Shown here one piece after another: positions 3,586 through 63,849 of a stretch of 64,000 bases of DNA. Numbering within the stretch: position 1 is the first letter of the stretch; every line of letters begins with the position of its first letter. The position numbers and the translations under genes were made by a program. The notes below the pieces were generated by a model. It saw only the letters and a list, made by a program, of their open reading frames with translations. It was not told the origin of the DNA and did not search any database. Source of the DNA: Octopus vulgaris (taxonomy: Eukaryota); contig OX597833.1 in assembly GCA_951406725.2 (NCBI GenBank), positions 61,256,001 to 61,320,000 of the forward strand, in the 5' to 3' direction.

Positions 3586-3800
3586 GGCGGTGAGCTAGCA
3601 GAAATATTAGCACGCCAGGTGAAAAGCTTAGCAGTATTTCGTCTGCCATTACGTTCTGAGTTCAAATTCCGCCGAGGTCGACTTTACCTTTCATCCTTCC
3701 AAGGTCGATAAATTAAGTACCAGTTACACACTGGACTTAATCCTTTTGTCTGTCCTTGTTTGTCCCCTCTATGTTTAGCCCCTTGTGGGCAATAAAGAAA
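3586..3800 (+). mobile_element. SINE family A monomer (tRNA-derived head; central GCCTTTCATCCTTTCGGGGTCGATAAATTAAGTACC domain)
   Basis: A-box-like GAGCTAGCAGAA, B box GAGTTCAAATTCC, tail taaagaaa. More than 10 related loci in the window. Confidence 0.85.
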
Positions 3801-4217
3801 TTAGAAATCAAGACAAGAGTAAAACACACATACACGACAGGTTTCTTTCAGTTTCTGTCCACCACAACCAGACATTTGCCCAAGATACCACAGTGGGATT
3901 GAACCCCAAACCTATGTGGTTGAGAAGTAAATTTCTTACCACAGCCACACCTGTAACTATATAGTAAATATGTATTATTACTTCCATGTGTAATAAACTT
4001 CATGTGATATGATTATTTCCCGATCTAAATCACTCCATGTTCGATTATCAATTCAAAGCTATCCCACTTTACAGCAATAACCAGAGAAATTTCTTTGAAA
4101 TTTTAAAAACACTCAAATTTCTGTAGCAAATGAAAGTTGGGGCTAGAAATAAAATATCTAAAATATTCATTTCAGTTGTAAACATATTAGACCTGCACTA
4201 AATTGAAAAAAAAAATA

Positions 4218-8698: not shown

Positions 8699-9302
8699 AT
8701 GCATCTATATACTTTGAAGCATTCAGCATACATCCTTTGTCCACCTATTTGTTTTATAAGCATTTTAGGAAGTTCCTATCCCCTCTGAATCAATGTACTT
8801 ACAGAGTGTTGAGCTGTTTAGATCAGTGGTTCTCAAGCATTTTTCACTTATGAACCCCTCTGATCCCTATTTTACTTGGGTGGACCCTTATAAGCAGTTG
8901 ATGCTTAAAAATTCCTATTATATCTTTATAATTAAATATTACTTTCAAATTTTGGTACCAGGCCAGCAATTTTGTGGGCGGGAATAAGTTGATTGCATTG
9001 ACCCCCAATGTTCAACTGGGACTTATTTTATTGACCCTGAAAGGATGAAAGGCAAAGTTGACTTTGAACTCAGAATGTAAGATCAGATGAAATGCTTCTA
9101 AGCATTTTTCCTGGCATGCTAACAATTCTGCCAGCTCGCTGCCTTAATAATAAGGGTTTCAAGTTTTGCCACAAGGGCAGCCATTTTGGAGGAGGGGATG
9201 AAATGATTACATTGACCCCCAACTGTTCAAATGGTACTTAATTTATTGACCTGAAAGATGAAAGGGTAAGTTGACCTTGGCAGAATTTGAACTCAGAATG
9301 TA

Positions 9303-9720
9303 GCGACAGCCGAAATACCTATTTCTTTACTACCCACAAGGGGCTAAACACTGAAAGGACAAAGAAGGACAGACAGATGGATTAAGTCGATTATAACGAC
9401 CCCAGTGTGTAACTGGTACTTATTTAATCGACCTTTTGTTTTTAATGGCAATTTTTTAATGACATTCTCTACAAATACCTACATCTTTACTACCAACAAG
9501 GGGCTAAACACAGAAAGGACAAACAAACGGATTAAGTCGATTATATCGACCCCAGTGCGTAACTGGTACTTAATTTATCAACTCCAAAAGGATGAAAAGC
9601 AAAGTCAACCTCAGCGGAATTTGAACTCAGAACATAATGGCAGACGAAATATTATTTCTTTACTGCACACAAGGGGCTACACACAGAGGGGACAAACAAG
9701 GACAGACAAACGGATTTTGT
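9303..9720 (-). mobile_element. SINE family A, degenerate tandem array
   Basis: Repeated gaaatacc|tatttctttactac units. Confidence 0.7.
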
Positions 9721-10835
9721 CAAGAAGCAAGCATAGCCACGCCTGCACACACACACACACACACGTGTGCATGTGTGTGTGTAAATGTATATATATGTAA
9801 ACACCAGTATTGAGTTATTTCCCTTCATCTTGTTGGGCTGACTGAGCTGCGGTTGCAATTGCATAGAAGAAAATGTTGATATTGCCTTACAATACTCCTA
9901 GATTGAGTGGAGACTTTGGTAATGTTATAACGAAATGTACTGTGGAATGAATTGTTATGGAACCAGCAGATAATGGATCATCATCAGCAGCAAGAGAGTA
10001 TAACAGTGGTACCCCACAAATTGGGAAATATATCTGAGAAGTCTCCAGTATTGCTTGTGATCAATACAGGCACAACACTAACTCTCCAGACACTGATGGT
10101 CCAGAACTTTGTATAATTCATACTAATTTACAAGCAGGCACTTCAAATTCTCATGGCCACCAGACTGGTTTACTGGTCAACCCAGTTCCAGAATACCTTG
10201 CACAGTACAGTATTAGTAAACTTATATTATCATCATTTAACGTCCGTTGTCCATATATATTTATCTATCTATCTCTATATATATCTAGCCGTAGAAACAC
10301 TGCCAGATCTGACTGGACCTGATGAAGCCTTGCGGCTTCACAGACCCCAGTTGAACCGTCCAACCCATGCTAGCATGGAAAACGGACGCTAAATGATGAT
10401 GATGATGATATAACTATATATAAGGGGAGAGTTCACAAAAAAACACCCAAAAGACGAAGACAGCTGGCGTACAAAACAAACATTTGTACAGCACATACAT
10501 CTGATCACTGTAAACAACTCATTTGTACAGGTCATTCAGCAAAAACTGAACATTCATACATCTTTGATGGAGGAGTCCATCATATATATATATATATATA
10601 TATACGTTTTATTTATTATTTTGCACATTACTTAATCATTGCTATATGTTTTATCTTATATTTGAATTTCCTATATTTAATTTTTCTAAATGGTATAATT
10701 TAATTTTTCATTAATGAATTGATAAAAGGTGGGGTTTTTTCTAATTTATATGTATATATTATATTTTGTGAAATTTGATTTAGTATTTCTAAATTGAATT
10801 TTTCTATGTAAGTTTGGAATAATATTCCCTCATAT

Positions 10836-12761: not shown

Positions 12762-13268
12762 TGCCAGTGGCACGTAAAAAGCACCAACCAATCGTGGCCA
12801 TTGCCAGCCTCCCATGGCACCTGTGCCAGTGGCATGTAAAAAGCACCCACTACACTCATGGAGTGGTTGGCGTTAGGAAGGGCATCCAGCTGTAGAAATT
12901 CTGCCAGATCAGACTGGTGCCTGGTGCAGCCTCCTGGCTTCCCAGACCCCGGTCAAACCATCCAACCCATGCTAGCATGGAAAACGGACATAATCGACTT
13001 AATCTGTGTGTCTGTCCTTGTTTGTCCCCTCTGTGTTTAGCCCCTTGTGGGTAGTAAAGAAACAGGTATTGTTGAAGGCGGCGAGCTGGCAGAAACGTTA
13101 GCATGCCAGGCGAAATGCTTAGCGGTATTTCGTCTGCCGCTACGTTCTGAGTTCAAATTCCGCCGAGGTCAACTTTGCCTTTCATCCTTTCGGGGTCGAT
13201 TTAATAAGTACCAGTTACGCACTGGGGTCGATCTAATCGACTTAATCCGTTTGTCCTCTCTGTGTTTA
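12762..13268 (+). mobile_element. SINE family C with SINE family A copies inserted near its tail
   Basis: GGAGTGGTTGGCGTTAGGAAGGGCATCC body, then family A sequence, then the (GAT)n tail resumes at ~13269. Confidence 0.7.
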
Positions 13269-13886
13269 TGATGATGATATTTGTAACGGAATTAACCGAC
13301 AAGGTAATGACTAACCATAATTAGTTCCCATAAATACGAAAACAAATCGTGCCCGTGTTTGTGTTTGTCATTTATCTTGATAAAACAAAACTAGTTTCAT
13401 ACATTTATCTAGAACCTTTTATCTTCAGTTGTTACTATCCAGAAAATGGCTTATATTATCAATTAGGTACAGAAATCCTAAATATCTGAATGTCCAAGAT
13501 GACTTGCTATTAATGAGATGACCTCGCGTGTCAGTGATTCTACTCTTAGTTTTGAAACAAAGGAACCCAGTTCAAATCCAGTCTGGTACTAATATGAGTT
13601 CAGAAATAAGACTTCTGATGAGGAAAGCTGATCAAATAGATTAAAATACAATGGCTGTGTGGTAAGAAGTTTGCTTCCCAACTACATGGTTTTGGGTTCA
13701 GTTCCACTGTATGGCACTTTCAGCATGTGTCTTCTACTGTGGATTTGGGCCAACCAAAGCTTGTTGTATATGTGTGTGCATTACTATTTCCTTGCCTTGA
13801 CATTGCGTCACAGTTACCATGATGCAAGCAATGTCATATTTTCCAATCTTCCATGAAAACATGTCTGGTCATGGAGAAATATTACC

Positions 13887-14459
13887 TATTTCTTTACTAC
13901 CCACAAGGCGCTAAACACAGAGAGGACAAACAAGGACAGACAAACGGATCAAGTCAATTATATTGACCCCAGTGCGTAACTGGTACTTATTTAATCAACC
14001 CCAAAAGGATGAAAGGCAAAGTCGACCTTGTCGGAATCTGAACTCAGAATGTAGCGGCAGACGAAATACCTATTTCTTTACTACCCACAAGGGGCTAAAC
14101 ACAGAGAGGACAAACAAGGACAGACAAACAGTTTAAGTCGATTATATCGACCCCAGTGCGTAATTGGTACTTATTTAATCGACCCCAAAAGGATGAAAGG
14201 CAAAGTCGACCTTGGTGGAATTTGAACTCAGAACGTAGTGGCAGACGAAATACCTATTTCTTTACTACCCACAAGGAGAGACAAATGGATTAAGTCAATT
14301 ATATCGATTCCAGTGTGTAACTGGTACTTATTTAAACGACCCTGAAAGGATGAAAGGCAAAGTCAACCTCGGTGGAATTTGAACTCTGAATGTAGCGGCA
14401 GACGAAATACCACTAAGCATTTCGCCTGGCGTGCTAACATTTCTGCCAGCTCGCCGCCA
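13887..14459 (-). mobile_element. SINE family A trimer with an 18-bp TSD
   Basis: Units start at 13887, 14071 and 14255 (period 184). TSD tcatggagaaatattacc at 13869-13886 and 14462-14479. Confidence 0.9.
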
Positions 14460-14967
14460 TTTCATGGAGAAATATTACCTTACTTGGAATCAAATGAGGG
14501 TTGGCATCAGGAAGAACGTCCGGCTGTGGAAAGTCTGCTTCTACAAATTTCATCCAACTCATGTAAGCATGGAAAAGTGGACGTTAAAAATGACGATGTA
14601 CATGCAAATATCAAACAACAACAACAACAACAACAGAATAATCATTTTTAAAGACAATTTTAATTATTGGAAAAAAACAAAATTATCATCTTATATATCA
14701 TAACCAACTGTTGGATAACAGTAGTTCAAATTTCAAAAGCAGTGCTCGAAAAAGTGGCATAATATCCTGTGGTCAATGGAATGGGGGGAGGGAGGTATTT
14801 GTCTCCCTGTATTTTTAAGGTTAATATACTTCCTTATATATTTGTGAGGTAAACAATAGTCTTCCTATATTCTTAAGATAAAGCAAATGTTTACCTTAAA
14901 AACTATATGGAAACATGTTTAAGTTAAATCAGCATAGAAAGTGGCTGTAAAATGTTGATGATATGCA

Positions 14968-18119: not shown

Positions 18120-18502
18120 ATCAGAATTGAAATCGATCAATGGAAATTGCAGCTGAAATACCAGTGCCGGTGGCACGTAAGAGAACCATCCGAACGTGGC
18201 CGTTGCCAGCGCCGCCCCGACTGGCCTCGTGCTGGTGGCACGTAAAAAACACCATCCGTTCGTGGCCGTTGCCAGCCTCGCCTGGCCCTTGTGCCGGTGG
18301 CACATAAAAAGCACAATCCGATCATGGCCGTTTGCCAGACTCGTCTGGCACCTGTGCCGGTGGCACATAAAAAGCACCCACTACACTCATGGAGTGGTTG
18401 GCGTTAGGAAGGGCATCCAGCCTTCTGGCTTCACAGACCCCAGTTGAATCGTCCAACCCATGCTAGCATGGAAAGCGGACGCTAAACGATGATGATGATG
18501 AT
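18120..18502 (+). mobile_element. SINE family C with internal ~62-bp repeats
   Basis: Repeated GGTGGCACGTAAAAAGCACC, family C body, (GAT)n tail. Confidence 0.8.
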
Positions 18503-28814: not shown

Positions 28815-29027
28815 TTTTGCAGCAACGTGTACCAAGAACTCTGAAAATAAATAAATAAAATAAAATAAAATAAAATAAAATAAAGAACAATGAAAACCAG
28901 CTGAAAGTGCAAAAAATAATCTTACTGAAAAAAGTAAAATAACATGAGCAGATAACTATGTTTGACTCAATCTGCCTTGTGGATAAATAGGTAGCAACAG
29001 CAAAGTGAAGAGAGACCCAAATATACC

Positions 29028-29442
29028 TATTTCTTTACTACCCACAAGGGGCTAAACACAGAGAGGACAAACAAGGACAGACAAACGGATTAAGTCGATT
29101 ATATCGACCCCAGTGCGTAACTGGTACTTATTTAATTGACCCCGAAAGGATGAAAGGCAAAGTCGACCTCAGCGGAATTTGAACTCAGAATGTAAAGATA
29201 GGCGAAATACCTATTTCTTTACTACCCACAAGGGGCTAAACACAGAGAGGACAAACAAGGACAGACAAACGGATTAAGTCAATTATATCGACCCCAGTGC
29301 GTAACTGGTACTTATTTAATCGACTCTGAAAGGATGAAAGGCAAAATCGACCTCGGCAGAATTTGAACTCAGAATGTAGCAGCAGACGAAATACTGCTTA
29401 GCATTTCGCCCGGCATGCTAACGTTTCTGCCAGCTCACCGCC

Positions 29443-39557: not shown

Positions 39558-39782
39558 TACGACGAGCTTCTTTCAGTTTCTGTCTACCAAATCCACTCTC
39601 AAGCTATAGTAGAAGGCACTTGCCCAAGGTGCCATGCAGTGGGACTGAACCCGGAACCATGTGGTTCGTAAGCAAGCTACTTACCACACAGCCACTCCTC
39701 CGCCTAACAGCTATATAAAATGTTTTTATGATCAGGTAGGATATATTTACCCCTGGCCAACAGCCACAGACTTCACAATACC

Positions 39783-40242
39783 TATTTCTTTACTACCCAC
39801 AAGAGGCTAAACACAGAGGAGACAAACAAGGACAGACAAACGGATTAAGTCGATTATGTCGACCCCAGTGCATAACTGGTACTTAATTTATCGACCCCAA
39901 AAGGATGAAAGGCAAAGTCAACCTCGTCGGAATTTGAACTCGGAACATAACGGCAGACAAAATAGTGCTAAGCATTTCGCCCGGCGTGCTAATGATTCTG
40001 CCAGCTCGCCGCCTTTACTATACCTATTTCTTTACAACCCACAAGGGGCTAAACACAGAGGAGACAAACAGATTAAGTCGATTATGTCGACCCCAGTGCA
40101 TAACTGGTCCTTAATTTATCGACCCCAAAAGGATGAAAGGCAAAGTCGACCTCGGCGGAATTTGAACTCAGAATGTAACGGCAGACGAAATACCGCTAAG
40201 CATTTCACCCGGCATGCTAACGTTTCTGCCAGCTCGCCGCCT
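39783..40242 (-). mobile_element. Two adjacent full-head SINE family A monomers
   Basis: Both have complete heads and both 3' ends abut GGTAT. Confidence 0.85.
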
Positions 40243-43117: not shown

Positions 43118-44030
43118 GGGTGCTTTTATGTTCCACCAGCATGGGTGCCAGTTACGTGATACCAGCATCATCCACATTGCCTCCATGAGGCCCAATGCTT
43201 GAATGGTGCCTTTTATGTGCCACCAGCATGGGTTCCAGTTACGTGACACCGGTCTCAGCCACATTGCCTCCATGGTGCCTTTTATGTCCCACCAGCATGG
43301 GTGCCAGTTACGTGACACCAGCATCAGCCACATTGCCTCCATGAGGCCCAATGCTTGAATGGTGCCTTTTATGTGCCACCAGCATGGGTTCCAGTTATGT
43401 GACACCAGCATCAGCCACATTGCCTCCATGAGGCCCAATGCTTGAATGGTGCCTTTTATGTGCCACCAGCATGGATGCCAGTTATGTGACACCAGCATCA
43501 GCCACATTGCCTCCATGAGGCCCAATGCTTGAATGGTGCCTTTTATGTGCCACCAGCATGGGTGCCAGTTACGTGACACCAGCATCAGCCACATTGCCTC
43601 CATGAGGCCCAATGCTTGAATGGTGCCTTTTATGTGCCACCAGCATGGGTTCCAGTTATGTGACACCAGCATCAGGCCACATTGCCTCCATGAGGCCCAA
43701 TGCTTGAATGGTGCCTTTTATGTGCCACCAGCATGGGTGCCAGTTACGTGACACCCTCATCAGCCACATTGCCTCCATGAGGCCATGGTGCCTTTTATGT
43801 CCCACCAGCATGGGTGCCAGTTACGTGACACCAGCATCAGCCACATTGCCTCCATGAGGCCCAATGCTTGAATGGTGCCTTTTATGTGCCACCAGCATGG
43901 GTTCCAGTTATGTGACACCAGCATCATCCACATTGCCTCCATGAGGCCCAATGCTTGAATGGTGCCTCTTATGTGCCACCAGCATGGGTGCCAGTTATGT
44001 GCCACCAGCATCAGCACATTGCCTCCATGA
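43118..44030. repeat. 87-bp minisatellite (~10-11 units) at the 5' end of a minus-strand family C SINE
   Basis: Unit ggtgccttttatgtgccaccagcatggg...ggcccaatgcttgaat; gives 29-aa periodicity in ORF 42809-43672. Confidence 0.92.
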
Positions 44031-44696
44031 GATGTATCTGGAAAGAACCTGTGGAAAAGGAAAATAAGATGAAGTGTTGAAAGCTGATCTAAATTGTTGA
44101 ATCCCATGAAATGACAAGAGATCACAGAGGGGGTGGAGAGGAAGCGAGACCCCCCCACACACACACACACTATCCTGGGAAGGACATTCTTCTCACGTAA
44201 TCCTGGGAAAATGAGTAATAATATTGATGAAGATGATAATATTTTGTAATGGAAATTTAGCTGCTATTTTTAGCAGGATGAGTGATGACACTAAGGCTCC
44301 TTTATTGGTGCTCTTACGGTGTTCTTTAAATTCTAGTGGTTTAATAACATCCGGTGCTGCCAATACCACACCAGGATTCACCAAACACGATCTCATTGAA
44401 ATGGTTGGCTCTTGTTTTTTAGGTTTTATTCTTGTTTTTTTGTTGTTTTTGTTTTTTTGTTGTTGATAAAATCTGACCTTTAACCGCAGAGTTTCTGCAC
44501 AATAAAATCCATCTGTAGACCCACAAGCAAATACAAGATTAGATTTCCATCAGTGAATTAATTACCATAAATGGTTCGTGTTGGACCATTCGAGACCAGA
44601 ATCATGACAGCTGCCTAACAAGAAAACATGCAGTCACATGCTTGGCTGTGTAGTAAGAAGGTTGCCTCCAAGCCACATGGTTCCAAGTTCAATACC

Positions 44697-45113
44697 TATT
44701 TCTTTACTACCCACAAGGGGCTAAACACAGAGAGGACAAACAAGGACAGACAAACGGATTAAGTCGATTATATCGACCCCAGTGCATAACTGGTACTTTA
44801 TTTAATCGACCCCGAAAGGATGACAGGCAAAGTCGACCTCGGTGGAATTTGAACTCAGAAAGTAGCGGCAGGCGAAATACCTATTTCTTTACTACCCACA
44901 AGGGGCTAAACACAGAGGGGACAAACAAGGACAGACATAGGATTAAGTCGATTATATCGACCCCAGTGCGTAACTGGTACTTAATTTAATCGACCCCGAA
45001 AGGATGAAAGGCAAAGTCGACCTTGGTGGAATTTGAACTCAGAACATAATGGCAGACAAAATACTGCTAAGCATTTTGCACCGGCATGCTAACGTTTCAG
45101 CCAGCTCACCGCC
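44697..45113 (-). mobile_element. SINE family A dimer with TSD aagttcaata
   Basis: Units at 44697 and 44882; inserted into an older SINE B relic. Confidence 0.88.
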
Positions 45114-47570: not shown

Positions 47571-49624
47571 AGAAGGGAGTCTTTACATACATATATATAA
47601 AATAAATTTACACTTCATATTCAAGGCTCTGACGAAGCTATAAGGTGTTACTCAGGCACTCAACTATGAAGATTCTGGGTCATGGACTCAAATTGTGGAT
47701 GTAGATTTTTACTTTATTATAACCCAAGTGTGCATGCACACAGATGCAAATGTGCATGCACACAGATGCAAATGTGCATGCACAAACACACTCTTTTCCA
47801 AGCTGGGGCAGTCATATATCTCCTCTACTGCAAGACACAGGTCTTGTCCCTTTAGCATACTGTAGCCTTTCATCACCCGGCACAAAGCCACCTCCCACAA
47901 TACTACTCTACACTTAGCTGAGAGACCCTCCTGTCTTGCAAGTCACTTGGAGACCTTGCCATTGCTGGTACCCTTATAAAAAGCATGCTGTACAGCCTGT
48001 AAAGTGGTTGGTGTAAGGAAGGGCGTCCAGCCATGCAAACCATGCCAAAGCAGATATTGGAGCTTGGCACAGACTTCTTGCTTGCCAGCCCCTATCAAAT
48101 CATTCAACCCATGCCAGCATGGAAAAGTAAATATTAAATGATCACACACACACCACACACATAGGTGCAGGAGTGGCTGTGTGGTAAGTAGCTTGCTAAC
48201 CAACCACATGGTTCTGGGTTCAGTCCCAGTGCGTGGCATCTTGGGCAACTGTCTTCTTCTATAGCCCCAGGCCGACCAATGCCTTGTGAGTGGATTTGGT
48301 AGACGGAAACTGAAAGAAGCCTGTCGTATATATGTATATATATATATAAGTGTGTGTGTATATGTTTGTGTGTATATGTTTGTGTGTCTGTGTTTGTCCC
48401 CTTAGCATTGCTTGACAACCAATGCTGGTGAGTTTATGTCCCTGTCACTTAGCGGTTCGGCAAAAGAGACCGATAGAATAAGTACTGGGCTTACAAAGAA
48501 TAAGTCCCGGGGTCGATTTGCTCGACTAAAGGCGGTGCTCCAGCATGGCCGCAGTCAAATGACTGAAACAAGTAAAAGAGTAAAGAGAGTAAAGAGTACA
48601 CACACACGCATGTGTGTGCATATGCAGTTGTGCATGTATGTTGAAATAAATGTCCCTTTTCCCACCAATAACAGGTTAGACAAAATCATTAAAACCATAT
48701 CTATAATAACTCTTAATTTATGCACAGTCTACGACTGGTTATGACTAACAACAACATTTACAATACTCATTCACATATATATTGATTATTAGTGAATAAT
48801 TAATTAGCTAGCTCCAATCAAGGTCAACAGAGACAGATGTTCATTAGTACACCATTAACCACCATGCCTTGCATAACAACAGCTGTGTGTTGGGGGGAGA
48901 TTTGGTTGCTATTTCTAGTAAGGCAACCAGCTACAGACTCCCTTTGCTAGCTCAGAGCTTCAAAAACAAAGTTGTTACATAGGGTTTTAGAAACCACAAC
49001 TAGAGTGTCTGCTAAGGAGAGAAATGCTAAATGGTTGTCAAAGTGTATCTCGGTTTTAGAACAGAACCTGTCTTCACATGTTGTGCAATCTTTGTAAACA
49101 AAGGGTTCATTCATTCAGTTTGTTTGTTTGTTTCCAGTTCCCCAACAGTAAACACGTCTGGGCTGTTTTGTTGTTTTTGATAGAATGGAAAATTGTTTTC
49201 TCAGAGCCGAGTGTGGGTTGGCATTAGGAAGGGCATCCAGTCGTTGAAAACTGCTCCAACGTACGCGTAGTTGAACAGTGTAAGCTTAGAAAAGTTGGAG
49301 GTTAAAAATGATGAGGGTGATGAAAGGAGGAGGAGGAGAGACAGTACGAAGTTTTGAATGGCAGGAAAGTAATGTGGACGAGCAATAGAGAGAACAAAAA
49401 AATGTGGAACAGGATCTGGTCTTTACATGAAGTGTTTCCAGCTGTGACAATGGCAACACATCGACTCATTTCAGAGTGTTCAGTTGGTGTTGAGTCAACG
49501 GAGCAATATCAGCTCTTTTGAAATACCAAAAATAATAGCTACAATGATGCGGGACAAGAGAATCGAATGAATTTTCTTACTAGAGATGGGTACAGGGTCA
49601 ATGAAATAAACTCAGGTTTATTGC

Positions 49625-50456
49625 CTTTCATCCTTTTGGGGGGGTCGATAAATAAAGTACCAGTTTCGCACTGGGGTCGATGTAATCGACTCAATCTGTT
49701 TGTCTGTTCTTGTATCCTTTCGGGGTTGATTAAATAAGTACCAGTTACGCACTGGGGCCGATGTAATCGACTTAATCCGTTTGTCCGCTCTGGGTTTAGC
49801 CCCTTGTGGGCAGTTAAGAAATTGGTATTTCGTCTGCCGCTACGTTCCGAGTTCAAATTCCGCCAAGGTCGACTTTGCCTTTCATCCTTTCGGGGTTGAT
49901 TAAATAAGTACCAGTTTCGCACTGGGGTCGATGTAATCGACTCAATCCGTTTGTCTGTTCTTGTATCCTTTCGGGGTTGATTAAATAAGTACCAGTTACG
50001 CACTGGGGCCGATGTAATCAACTTAATCCGTTTATCTGTCCTTGTTTGTCCGCTCTGTGTTTAGCCCCTTGTGGGCAGTTAAGAAATTGGTATTTCGTCT
50101 GCCGTTACGTTCTGAGTTCAAATTCCACCATGGTCGACTTTGCCTTTCATCCTTTCGGGGTTGATTAAATAAGTACCAGTTTCGCACTGGGGTCGATGTA
50201 ATCGACTTAATCCATTTGTCTGTCCTTGTTTGTCCGCTCTGTGTTTAGCCCCTTGTGGGCAGTTAAGAAATTGGTATTTCGTCTGCCGCTACGTTCTGAG
50301 TTCAAATTCCGCCGTGGTCGACTTTGCCTTTCATCCTTTCGGGGTCGATTAAATAAGTACCAGTTACGCACTGGGGTCAATGTAATCGACTTAATCCGTT
50401 TGTCTGTCCTTGTTTGTCCCCTCTGTGTGTAGCCCCTTGTGGGCAGTAAAGAAAAA
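49625..50456 (+). mobile_element. 5'-truncated SINE family A multimer (~5 units, some internally deleted)
   Basis: Repeated units with gaaatt|ggtatttcg junctions; flanking direct repeat accaaaaa(a)taatagcta. Confidence 0.85.
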
Positions 50457-55000: not shown

Positions 55001-56099
55001 CGCCGAGGTCGACTTTGCCTTTCATCCTTTCAGGGGTGCTAAATTAAGTACCAGCTGAGTACTGGGGTCGATCTAATTGACTGGCTTCCTCCCCCAAATT
55101 TTCGGGCCTTGTGTCTAGAGTAGAAAAGAATATACATTTTGTTATACACCAGTGCAATATGCATCTTTTTAAACATACATGCAATATATATTTTGTTATA
55201 CATCCATGTAATATATATCTTGTTCATTTGCTCATCCGATCGTGGCCGTTGCCAGCCTCGCCTGGCCTCCGTGCCGGTGGCACGTAAAAAGCACCATCCG
55301 ATCGTGGCCGTTTGCCAGCCTCGGCTGGCCTCCGTTGCCGGTGGCACGTAAAAAGTACCATCCGATCGTGGCCGTCTGCCAGCCTCGCCTGGCCTCCATA
55401 CCGGTGGCACGTAAAAAGCACCATCCGAACATGGCTGTTTGCCAGCCTCGCCTGGCCTCCGTGCCGGTGGCACGTAAAAATCACCCACTACACTCATGGA
55501 GTGGTTGGCGTTAGGAAGGGCATCCAGCCGTAGAAACATTGCCAGATCAGACTGGAGCCTGGTGCAGCCTCCTGGCTTCCCAGACCCCAGTTGCACCGTC
55601 CAACCCATGCCAGCATGGAAAGCGGACGCTAAACGATGATGATGATGATGAGTGTGACTTAAACAGAGGAGGTATCTGAAGCAGAATTTTTATAATTGAA
55701 TGCCCTTCATTTCAGTAACCCTTAGTTGTTTTCCAAGTAATAGACTCCTTTTTATTTTATTTTATTCCAGATAAATGTGAAAGAGCACAGCTAGTGGATA
55801 ATTTGTTGATAGGATATGCCAATTAAGTCACTAGTCACAGTCTAGCTACAAATGGCAACACCCCTATCAGTAGGCATAGCTCTGTAATCATTCATACAGC
55901 CCAAGCACGTGAACATACACACACAGACACACACACAGCATTTCTGTACAGCTTCAGTCTACAAAAAAACAACAGTTACAATGTTTCAAAAGTATATTGT
56001 ATATTCTCATTCCCAGCTCACAACATAGTTTTCGAAAATTTCCTTGTGAAACTCGTAACATCATACCAATATTTCAGTACTTTTCACTAACAGCATGGC

Positions 56100-56445: not shown

Positions 56446-57165
56446 TGAGTGAGTGAGAGACTGTGTGTGAATATATACACATACTTACACACACACAAAC
56501 AATGCATGTATTTTAAATCAGTAATTGGAGCCCAGAAACCCTGGGGACACATGTGTTGCATTCATTTAGAGAGGAAAGGAGGGAGGGAGGGAGGAAAGAG
56601 AAGGATGTTGGGGGTGGGCGGGTGGGATGGAAGAGAGGAATGTAAGGGGAAGGTGGGTGGTAAACGAGAAGACAAAAGCTGGGGTTACGACAGACAACAG
56701 AAACTTCATTGTGTTAATGTTGTTGTTGTAAGGAACAAAGAGGTATTGAACTGCTGATCTCTCTGCATCCTGTTTTACATTGCTATCACATAACTCAATT
56801 GATATTTTTGGAGGAAGGTAGAATGTGATGCACTGTAAGAGAGTCACCAAACCACCATTACTACTACTACTACTACTATTACTACCACCACCACCATCAC
56901 CCCAATTACCCCCAGTACCACCAGTCAGCATACTACTGTCACCACCACCACCATCATTACCTACCACACCCCACGGGCTTCTACTACCGCTGTATGCATA
57001 TCATCTCACTACCACACATGCCACCACCATTATTGTTTGAAGCCAGCCAGTTGAACAGGTTTTTAAATAATCAAAATGTTATTGACGTCTGATATAACTG
57101 ATATTATGAAAACCAATGTATGGAAACCTCTACATGGGCACTAGGAATGACCCAAATAAAAGCTG

Positions 57166-57741
57166 AAGGCGGCGAGCTGGCAGAAACGTTAGCACGCCGG
57201 GCGAAATGCTTAGCGGTATTTCGTCTGCCGCTATGTTCTGAGTTCAAACTCCGCCGTGGTCGACTTTGCCTTTCATCCTTTCGGGGTTGATTAAATAAGT
57301 ACCAGTTACGCACTGGGGCCAATGTAATCGACATAATCCCTTTGTCTGTCCTTGTTTGTCCCTTCTGTGTTTAGCCCCTTGTGGGTAGTAAAGAAATAGG
57401 TATTTCGTCTGCCGTTACGTTCTGAGTTCAAATTCCACCGAGGTCAACTTTGCCTTTCATCCTTTCGGGGTCGATAAATTAAGTACCAGTTACGCACTGG
57501 GGTCGATGTAATCAACTTAATCCATTTGTCTGTCGTTGTTTGTCCGCTCTGTGTTTAGCCCCTTGTGGATAGTAAAGAAATAGGTATTTCGTCTGCCGTT
57601 ACGTTCTGAGTTCAAATTCCACCGAGGTCGACTTTGCCTTTCATCCTTTCGGGGTCGATAAATTAAGCACCAGTTACACAATGTCTGTCCTTGTTTGTCC
57701 CCTCTATGTTTAGCCCCTTGTGGGCAATAAAGAAATAAGAA
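57166..57741 (+). mobile_element. SINE family A trimer with TSD aataaaagctg
   Basis: ggtatt unit starts at 57215, 57399 and 57583 (period 184). Confidence 0.9.
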
Positions 57742-58818
57742 ATAAAAGCTGAATCTCCCCGCCCCCAAAGCACATTCTAGTGCCTTGGAAATAAAAACAA
57801 AAAAATGAAGGTTACATTGGGTAATGTTGCCCTTGACAACATTTCAAGAAAGGCTGGATGTTCACACTTGGACCACTATTGATGATAAGTCTACTGTATA
57901 TAAAGGCTGACCCAACAACAAGGGTGATTGGAAAGTAACTCCCTATTTTAAAATGCTTATAATTTATTTATTAACTATAATTTTTTTCTCAAATTTGTTG
58001 TGTACGTTCATTAATGTATGGGAATTGATTCCATGTTTTTTTCTTTTCAGATTGATTATTTTGTTTTGCTAACCAATCACATGGTTCCGGGTTCAGTCCC
58101 ACTGCGTGGCACCTTGGGCAAGTATCTTCTACTAAAGCCTCGGTCCGGCCAAAGCCTTGTGAGTGGATTTGGTAGACGGAAACTGAAAGAAGCCCATTGT
58201 ATATATGTACATATATATATGTGTGTGAGTTTGTGTGTCTGTGTTTGTCCTTCCAACATCGCTTGACAACCGATGGTGGTGTGTTTACGTCCCTGTAACT
58301 TAGCGGTTCAGCAAAAGAGACTGATAAAATAAGTACTAGGCTTACAAAGAATAAGTCCTGGGGTCGATTTGCTCGACTGAAAGGTGGTGCTCCAGCATGG
58401 CCGTAGTCAAATGACTGAAACAAGTAAAAGAGTAAGCCCTACACACATGGCTGGATGTCTTACTGTGCAGGAGCTTGTGCAGCTAGCTGCACATTACAAA
58501 GTTTGGAGATCAGCTGTTCAAGCGCAAAGATGGTGGAGGACCATTAGAGGAAGACATGCCCAAGTTGATGCAAAAAGATAATCAAGAATTGCCATGCAAA
58601 ATTTATGACTACAGGATTTGTAGCTGGTACTTGAACTGTTCGTCCTTCCAATTCATCAAGATCCGCATATATACACAAACACAAACACACACACACATAT
58701 GCACAATAGAATGAATAGCATGATTAGGTCTATGGGTGTGAATACATATATATATATATATATATATGCATATAAATATATATATATATATGCATATAAA
58801 TATATATATATATATATA

Positions 58819-61694: not shown

Positions 61695-62101
61695 TTTCTT
61701 ATTTCTTTATTGTCCACAAAGGGCTAAACAAGGACAGACAAAGGGTTTAAGTCGATTACATCAACCCCAGTGCGTAACCAGTACTTAATTTATCGACCCT
61801 GAAAAGATGAAAGGCAAAGTTGACCTCGGTGGAATTTGAACTCAGAACGTAACGGCAGACGAAATACCTATTTCTTTACTACCCATATGGGGCTAAACAC
61901 AAAGGGGACAAACAAGGACAGACAAACGGATTAGGTCGATTACATCGACCCCAGTGCATAACTGGTACTGAATTTATCGACCCCGAAAGGATGAAAGGCA
62001 AAGTCGACCTCGGCGGAATTTGAACTCAGAACGTAATGGCAGACGAAATACCGCCAGGCATTTTGCCTGCCGTACTAATGTTTCTGCCAGCTAGCCGCCT
62101 T
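61695..62101 (-). mobile_element. SINE family A dimer
   Basis: gaaatacc|tatttc junction at ~61868. Confidence 0.85.
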
Positions 62102-62570: not shown

Positions 62571-62693
62571 TAATAACAAAGAGTAATAATCTCTTTTATA
62601 AAATCAGTTCTGTCTGTGTGTGTGTCTTTTCGGATCTCGGGCATCCTCCATCCAATTGCACCCAAATTTGAAATGTAGATACCGATGGTATCA

Positions 62694-63052
62694 AGGCAGT
62701 GAGCTGGCAGAAAAGTTAGCACGCTGGGCGAAATGCATAGCCATATTTCGTCTGCCGTTACGTTTTGAGTTCAAATTCCGCCAAAGTCGACTTTGCCTTT
62801 CATCCTTCGGGGTCGATAAATTAAGTACCAGTTACGTACTGGGGGTCGATGTAATCGACTTAATCCGTCTCTCTGTCCTTGTTTATCTCTTCTGTATTTA
62901 GCCCCTTGTGGGTAGTAAAGAAATAGGTATTCCGTCTGCCACTATGTTCTGAGTTCAAATTCCGCATTGGGGTCGATGTAATCGACTTAATCCGTTTGTC
63001 TGTCCTTGTTTGTCTCTTCTGTATTTAGCCCCTTGTGGGTAGTAAAGAAATA
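62694..63052 (+). mobile_element. SINE family A dimer (second unit internally deleted) inserted in a Helitron-like element
   Basis: Duplicated ggtatcaaggc at 62687 and 63053; empty-site paralog at ~47465. Confidence 0.85.
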
Positions 63053-63849
63053 GGTATCAAGGCGTGTATAAGACTTGAAAAAATTACACAAATCGATTCC
63101 AGGTGAGAATGCGATCGATAAAGCCGTTTTTGTCCTGCTTTTCTTCTGTCAACCTGTACATAACTGCACCCTCCATTTTATTTTTTGTTGTTTTTGTACT
63201 GCTTAAAGGCACGTTTCTTTCCTTCCAAGCTTACTGTTTAAACCATGTTTGTGTTCTCCCAGTCAACAGCCTTATCATTGCTGGTACTTTAAACTCTTCG
63301 GTTGCATATTTGTGTGAACAAAATCGTTTTTCTTTGGAATAGAAAAAAGTCTATCTTTATTTCTTCTTTTGCTGGTGTCTCAAATTTAGGTTAAATCACG
63401 GCATGACACCTTGGGTAAGTGTTTTCTACTAAAGCCCCAGGATGATCAAACCTTTGTTGTGGATATAAGAGAGAAACTGAAAGAATCCCATCACGTGTGT
63501 GTGTGTGCATTTATGTGCATGTGTGTATCTGAATTTGCCCCAGTGCTTCAAGACCAGTGTAGGTTCATTTATGTCCCCATAACTTAGCAGTCTCAGCATA
63601 AGAGACCAATAGAGTAAGTATCACATTAAAAAAAAAAAAAAAGTGCAGGATAATTTTCAAGGTGGTGCTCCAACATAGCCGCAATCATATGACTGAAACA
63701 AGTAAAAGTTGAATCTTTTCATTAAACTCTTCAAGGTGGTGCCCCAGCATGGCAAGTCCAATGACAGAAACAAGTAAAAGATAAAAAAAAAAAAGAATGC
63801 CATCCAAACCATTATGATGCTATTTCAGTACATTGTATTTCTGTGTTAA

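Follow-up and report, generated by a model that had tools for sequence, protein, structure and literature searches.

A probable homing site within a SINE group and the origin of head-less 184-bp arrays in Octopus vulgaris

How does a SINE come to have one head, several bodies and a single TSD? The question is raised by the element at positions 13869-14480 of a 64,000-nucleotide stretch of the Octopus vulgaris genome (contig OX597833.1, positions 61,256,001 to 61,320,000; hereafter the window), one of several loci at which a 184-bp unit of a family that we call A is repeated in tandem without its head. Both the head-less arrays of the window and the junction between their units, as reported in a preliminary description of the sequence, are real. 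That description took each array for the product of one insertion, copied from a concatemeric transcript or from a 184-nt circle by analogy with animal retrozymes, and set self-insertion aside on the grounds that it would leave extra heads.

The focal trimer and its relatives in the window

Read on its own (minus) strand, the focal element opens with a TSD copy of 19 bp, AGGTAATATTTCTCCATGA (14462-14480), and a 47-nt head with an A-box-like motif (14412-14458), the 3' part of which pairs with the start of the unit to form a hairpin. Three family-A units follow: one with a TAG tail and a 27-nt internal deletion (157 nt; 14255-14411) and two of 184 bp (14071-14254 and 13887-14070), the last of which ends in about 35 nt similar to the tail of a LINE. 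The 3' TSD copy (13869-13887) starts with AGGTA, the letters with which a further unit would open. The enclosure of the whole multimer in one TSD was borne out, although the duplication is an exact 19 bp and not 18 bp as first given. The units are 89-93% identical to one another, and the two full ones carry a common subfamily haplotype, a match seen in 3% of random pairs; no private non-CpG variant common to these two units was found. A single subfamily haplotype together with a perfect TSD fits block insertion and counts against growth in place. The focal trimer is compatible both with insertion as a block, copied from a read-through RNA of three units, and with the later growth of a monomer.

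Arrays with one head and the expected junction were confirmed at 29028, 44697, 57166, 61695 and 62694, with two to three units each, and no array reaches the five units that had been given as the upper end of the range in the window. On the minus strand these are a head with two A units at 29023-29442, ending in GGTAT and flanked by a TA microsatellite; a head with two A units at 44692-45113, with the TSD G(A/G)TATTGAACTT; and a head with a TAG unit and a CAA-type unit last at 61695-62099. The plus strand carries a head with two TAG units and a CAA-type unit last at 57154-57753, and a head with two A units, the second one deleted, at 62687-63063 (TSD GGTATCAAGGC, 11 bp). The single TSD described for the 57166 array exists, but it is 14 bp long instead of 11 bp and begins within an AAGAAAT tail repeat. 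A TSD does not surround every array: it was not found at 29028 or 61695, and at 49625 no TSD can be seen. The two degenerate arrays placed at 9303 and 49625 are both present. The former (9140-9723, minus strand) is a composite in which GGTATTTCG marks the join between A tails and units and a non-A unit with a D-like tail, which comes last (B, C and D are our labels for SINEs that have the head and core of A with different tails). The latter (49621-50456, plus strand) has about four A units and no head; its units have in common a junction variant of their own and an internal duplication that recurs, which makes local duplication its likely origin. The window also holds a monomer with one head and one CAA-type A unit (3586-3856, plus strand). 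Other tandem repeats lie at 43119-44031 (87-bp repeat, about nine copies) and at 18164-18378 and 55233-55485 (63-bp repeats that are part of another dispersed repeat).

Family A has the traits of a SINE, being short, dispersed and of high copy number (94 A tails in a 1.2-Mb genome sample) with TSDs, which were identified in 15 of 40 A monomers. Its 3' tail is common with an RT-bearing LINE, 29 of the last 35 letters of a window A unit being identical to the LINE tail. Motifs resembling A and B boxes are visible in the head, and the core may be Nin/Inv-like. Neither ARAGORN nor Rfam gave a tRNA match. The only Rfam matches were two chance ones, with no ribozyme at E<=10, and the fold of head plus unit is not significant (z = -1.64). 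The unit contains no T4 terminator. The preliminary description had found no hammerhead in the unit, and this holds: the CTGANGA core is absent from both strands of a unit dimer and of head plus unit.

Chimeric arrays and the nature of the template

Across the 2.8-Gb genome, a 20-mer spanning the family-A junction has 34,752 exact matches and its reversed control none, and 791 overlapping genomic windows hold four junctions each at exact 184-bp spacing. The junction is not unique, as had been supposed, since a second one, at which the tail meets AGAAACGTTAGC (head position 16), gives 1,718 exact genome matches. In a sample of 120 stretches of 10 kb (1.2 Mb) from 30 large contigs, 42 of 64 family-A chains had a single unit and 22 had several. 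The last unit of the multi-unit chains was not of family A in 15 of the 22 cases, belonging to B or C in 10 and remaining unclassified in 5; in the other 7 it was A. Genome-wide, A-to-B junctions have 1,884 exact matches, as compared with 1,631 for the head-to-B junction of B monomers, and A-to-D junctions have 182, while the reverse direction, B followed by a unit, has only 4 against the 1,884. Among the 94 A tails of the sample, 36 are followed by a full unit, 3 by a partial one and 4 by head position 16. Of 1,708 GGTAT sites, 149 are SINE head-unit sites, yet 39 of the 94 tails enter a unit start. On the other hand, about half of the A tails lie at non-SINE sites, which counts against a homing reading. 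TSD starts track the tail type, being mostly GGTA with TAG or TAA tails and AGAA with CAA tails. This agrees with the 3' overlap of template and target that the consulted text of one study gives for several LINE clades (PMC6007223).

A few loci stand apart. At L074 an array of A units has a last unit that runs, past the shared core, into an unrelated body, which represents a further SINE subfamily serving as host. Head-less B units were found in tandem at one place only (L282-L284, G000:C24:32.71 Mb), with a period of about 170 bp. A tail of weak similarity occurs in another repeat family (L031:7313-7362, L098, L112, L113, L167 and L179), where it ends in CCAATAAAGAAA followed by (CTAT)n.

It has been suggested that the arrays are copies of a 184-nt circular or self-processed RNA made by rolling-circle reverse transcription, as with retrozymes. 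Such an RNA would account for the invariant junction, the tail sequence GAAAUA could pair with the UAUUUC of the unit start, and arrays of at least five units are indeed homogeneous: their adjacent units differ by 0.020 and have at least two private variants in common in 34 of 50 pairs, in a set of loci selected for exact spacing from which units beyond 170-195 bp were dropped. Short arrays show the opposite. Neighbours in 37 two-unit arrays differ by 0.058, compared with 0.060 for random pairs, and at least two private variants are common in only 5 of the 37, so that the units of a dimer are unrelated. In addition, most sampled arrays are terminated by another subfamily, and neither a hammerhead core nor an Rfam ribozyme is present. 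In some of the long arrays, still within the set picked for exact spacing, variants alternate (L058), a sign of local DNA duplication. With arrays that are chimeric across subfamilies and dimers of unrelated units, we consider a circular template to be very improbable.

The other half of the earlier proposal, a multimeric RNA template, fared better. Copies with a flanking TSD at L025 and L028 end 26-29 nt inside the next unit, indicating that read-through RNAs served as templates, many TAG-type copies end in GGTA, and the lack of T4 agrees with transcription past the unit end. A small number of fixed master arrays was considered as a source and rejected, as first, middle and last A units are equal in allele frequencies except for tail type and junction letter.

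Insertions at the junction site and a candidate partner LINE

The case against self-insertion rested on the absence of extra heads, but such heads exist. In the window, an element at 39777-40241 (minus strand) has the order head-unit-GGTATAGTAAA-head-unit, and at position 12987 a tail is followed by a head. In the genome, the pattern of a head, GGTATTT, a gap and a second head has 92 exact matches, whereas a control site gives 16. The first 30 of these 92 to be fetched represent 29 distinct loci, and 24 of the loci are true nests, in which the host head is followed by 9-20 duplicated bases starting from GGTATTT, a full A copy and the host body. The nested insertions therefore duplicate GGTATTTCG and lie at exactly the junction site. 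If arrays grow within a host copy, a single outer TSD is what one would expect. Tandem repeats of a head plus 18-29 nt, with a period of 65-76 bp and up to five matches running, were also seen (L190, L205 and G000:C14:84691111-84691416), possibly as a result of repeated abortive 5' joins.

A search with the 3' end of a LINE copy in L263 gave 390 candidates and 40 scored matches, of which 20 were fetched. In all 20 fetched copies the tail is joined to (T)GGTATT, behind which lie bodies of varied kinds (A, B, C or D); one of them enters an N gap and in one the host body is cut short. Site specificity is less clear from exact matches of LINE-type tails, since only 8 of 28 enter the SINE site. The remaining 20 of 28 lie outside it and possibly belong to a sister LINE with another target. 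One LINE copy (L377) has matches to RVT_1 and zf-RVT, and close relatives of about 1,150 aa have an APE domain (PF03372) in addition. The closest named RT relative is in Argonauta hians, and the best PDB match of one LINE relative (P0007) is L1 ORF2p. At L376:4735-6720 a copy sits at the junction of A and the following unit in a composite SINE, with a 13-bp TSD, GGTATTTCGTCTG; this copy has an ORF1-like CCHC knuckle and an internal deletion. Based on the similar 35-nt tail and the shared site, the RT-bearing LINE is the putative partner of the SINE, with an endonuclease that would choose the site.

We think that the arrays probably arise when a SINE, driven by a LINE, homes into related SINEs and is joined to their heads by homology, such that arrays grow in place. 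The route would begin at the join of the tail to GGTATTTCG, which is seen with A, B, C and D hosts and almost never in reverse. Nested copies with a 9-20 nt duplication from the site bear the mark of target-primed insertion, and the LINE with the similar tail enters the same site. Transcripts of A would extend into GGUAUUUCG and so pair with the nicked target. The end of the cDNA might then anneal to the host head, leaving one mosaic head and the old TSD of the host, while a direct join instead would give the rare two-head form. Beside site-directed self-insertion, contributions from read-through multimers, which appear to transpose as a block as well, and from local DNA duplication, which may expand long arrays, are supported. 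The chances are about even that the system forms a self-reinforcing loop, in which a site-specific LINE hits the head of its passenger SINE, the read-through RNA is homologous to both sides of the cut, and a seamless 184-bp unit has spread to tens of thousands of copies.

Host age, competing routes and known systems

Evidence on growth in place comes from composites of A and D. Loci around 91 of the 182 A-to-D matches were read, leaving out L181-L220; 65 composites pass the head filter across all loci, and 57 of these lack an outer head. In 56 of the 57, divergence is higher in the D core than in the first A core (0.127 vs 0.051). The outer TSDs of these composites, found in 23 of 57 loci, have 39 mismatches in 359 positions (10.9%), whereas monomers have 22/173 for D (12.7%; TSDs in 11/38) and 12/239 for A (5.0%; 15/40). 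The composites differ from A (p=0.016) and not from D (p=0.56), in a comparison from which simple-repeat TSDs were dropped and in which the anchored version separates the groups while the first, unanchored one did not. The outer TSD thus looks as old as the host. The heads are mosaics of host and invader: their 5' part diverges by 0.081 and their 3' parts by about 0.05, the references being 0.13 for D and 0.05 for A. At head position 19 the ratio of T to A is 29:23 in the composites, 17:41 in A and 34:2 in D, and the A-only marker G43 occurs in 12 of 57 composite heads and 0 of 38 D heads. The position-19 ratio implies only about 40% host origin, and a mixture with block moves is possible; the TSD rate, with a TSD in only 23 of 57 loci, would likewise be compatible with some block moves. 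Two heads are retained in 8 of 65 D hosts, as compared with 1 of 74 A or B hosts (p=0.013), and two-head products increase with host divergence. D-unit position 3 is T in 53 of 57 composites and C in 29 of 38 D monomers, a bias that may reflect target choice and not overwriting.

Composites of A and B are less decisive. The divergence of terminal B units is on a par with that of B monomers and exceeds that of their own A partners (p=1e-7, n=45). TSD mismatch does not discriminate here (7.5% vs 7.2% for B and 5.0% for A). CpG loss is 0.24-0.30 in terminal B units and 0.44-0.47 in B monomers; the lower loss is expected of transcribed masters and counts against growth in place. No allele of L232 from before the insertion was seen among contigs of four runs (organisms B-E), each with >450,000 paralogous records, and none of the listed contig pieces spanned the composite. 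Ectopic gene conversion from dimers was also considered and is disfavoured, as the switch to host sequence occurs within about 13 nt of the junction and not over the 118-bp shared region.

The lower CpG loss belongs to an account in which nests are rare and give rise to read-through masters, consisting of head, A and host body, that are copied as a block, with unit number set by repeated nesting and subsequent unequal exchange. The TSD-flanked copies with 26-29 nt of the next unit, the 5'-truncated A tails joined to units within non-SINE flanks, the unit without T4 and the A-like 3' two-thirds of the A+D heads all speak for it. Against it are the TSDs of the A+D composites, degraded like those of D, and the host letters in their heads, as well as the rarity of two-head loci (92 exact matches vs 34,752 junctions, for patterns of different stringency). 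Terminal B units also gave no clonal pair in 1,225 comparisons, a weak test that excludes a few masters and not hundreds. As the main route we find block-copied masters unlikely, while regarding some contribution from them as certain. Targeted insertion might alternatively leave two heads, one of which is lost afterwards when the two repeats of about 60 bp recombine. This would give mosaic heads, more two-head survivors in diverged hosts and an identical end product, but it would require a near-complete collapse of the 60-bp repeats while adjacent repeats of 118-184 bp survive in tens of thousands of arrays, and we judge it to be a poor prospect. No more credible than the circle is a switch of the reverse transcriptase between SINE RNAs at GGUAUUUCG within one insertion. 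Template switching has been proposed for module exchange among SINEs in the portions consulted of two studies (PMC4824008, PMC5804259) and would yield precise heteromeric joins within one TSD. However, the A units are much younger than the terminal D units and the TSDs of these, the TSD age having already weakened this idea, and nests with a TSD at the same site exist at the DNA level.

Homing with growth in place has several partial precedents, each cited here from part of its source. The family-A system would be a variant of target-specific SINE/LINE systems, the tests based on TSD age, mosaic heads and dependence on host divergence coming from the present analysis. In the excerpts on crocodilians (PMC4494074), SINEU-3 and Tx1-Mar likewise share a target within a repeat, and sequential insertions likewise produce tandem SINEs. 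Their target is a third element, Mariner-N4_AMi, whereas here it is the SINE's own head region, and their tandem copies are full and separated by TSDs, whereas those of family A are seamless and head-less. From the same excerpts, Tx1L in Tx1D of Xenopus and Keno in U2 genes show that site-specific LINEs of the L1/Tx1 type enter multicopy sequences, as would the octopus LINE, putatively of this type; in octopus it lands in a SINE group of high abundance, with its own likely passenger among the members. In the account of R2 and PRINT (PMC11371274), as far as consulted, the template's 3' end pairs with the nicked target, and the 5' ends of transgenes are either annealed, giving a seamless upstream end, or joined directly with a duplication, outcomes that match the one-head and two-head forms seen here. 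That system is an engineered R2 at rDNA, in contrast to a natural SINE with a putative APE-type LINE, and in octopus the homology is supplied by the family itself.

Arrays of the form TSD1-(SINE)n-TSD1 in Scapharca broughtonii (PMC11481361) resemble ours in having one complete head, head-truncated repeats and one outer TSD. Their internal units are truncated in the tail too, the authors suggest unequal recombination, and the sections consulted describe no fixed homing site or partner LINE. SINE satellites and Dip multimers of squamates (PMC10702118) also consist of tandem partial units and are also more homogeneous when long; the consulted text mainly invokes duplication and recombination and does not show targeted insertion. 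Non-LTR retrozymes, as presented in the extracts of PMC7229834, occur like family A in animal genomes as tandem units that are short (150-450 bp), and are defined by hammerheads and circRNAs. Family A differs in that no hammerhead was found and the arrays are chimeric, not copies of one monomer. Related literature, likewise consulted in part, includes PMC2881922, PMC4758252 and PMC3747384. We found no account of a system of the octopus type in the literature covered, mostly non-subscription papers in their main texts.

If this reading is correct, a SINE-LINE pair uses the SINE family itself as its landing pad and, by a homology-guided join, adds no new TSD. If the self-reinforcing loop holds as well, this would be a natural case of precise RNA-templated insertion by which old heads are converted and tandem repeats seeded. 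A single TSD would then not prove a single insertion, which affects the dating and counting of SINE insertions. Dispersed repeats would also pass directly into tandem ones, a transition that the papers on reptiles and clams ascribed to recombination. How the 5' end is joined in target-primed insertion is poorly understood, and the genome would offer tens of thousands of natural cases of this step, with the divergence of the host as an inherent variable.

Three further observations concern copies and subfamilies. An identical A+D composite with its flanks occurs twice, 13 kb apart (L311 and L312, G000:C2:76.56-76.57 Mb), and is a local segmental duplication. In a variant of family A, GCGTAGC/CGTATT, head positions 43 and 48 change jointly; it was found in 20 of 62 A monomers and was absent from B, C and D monomers of the same set. 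Finally, the ratio of A tail to core depth is about 0.17 in organism E (run X15) and 0.54-0.62 in organisms B-D, so family A may be less amplified in organism E.
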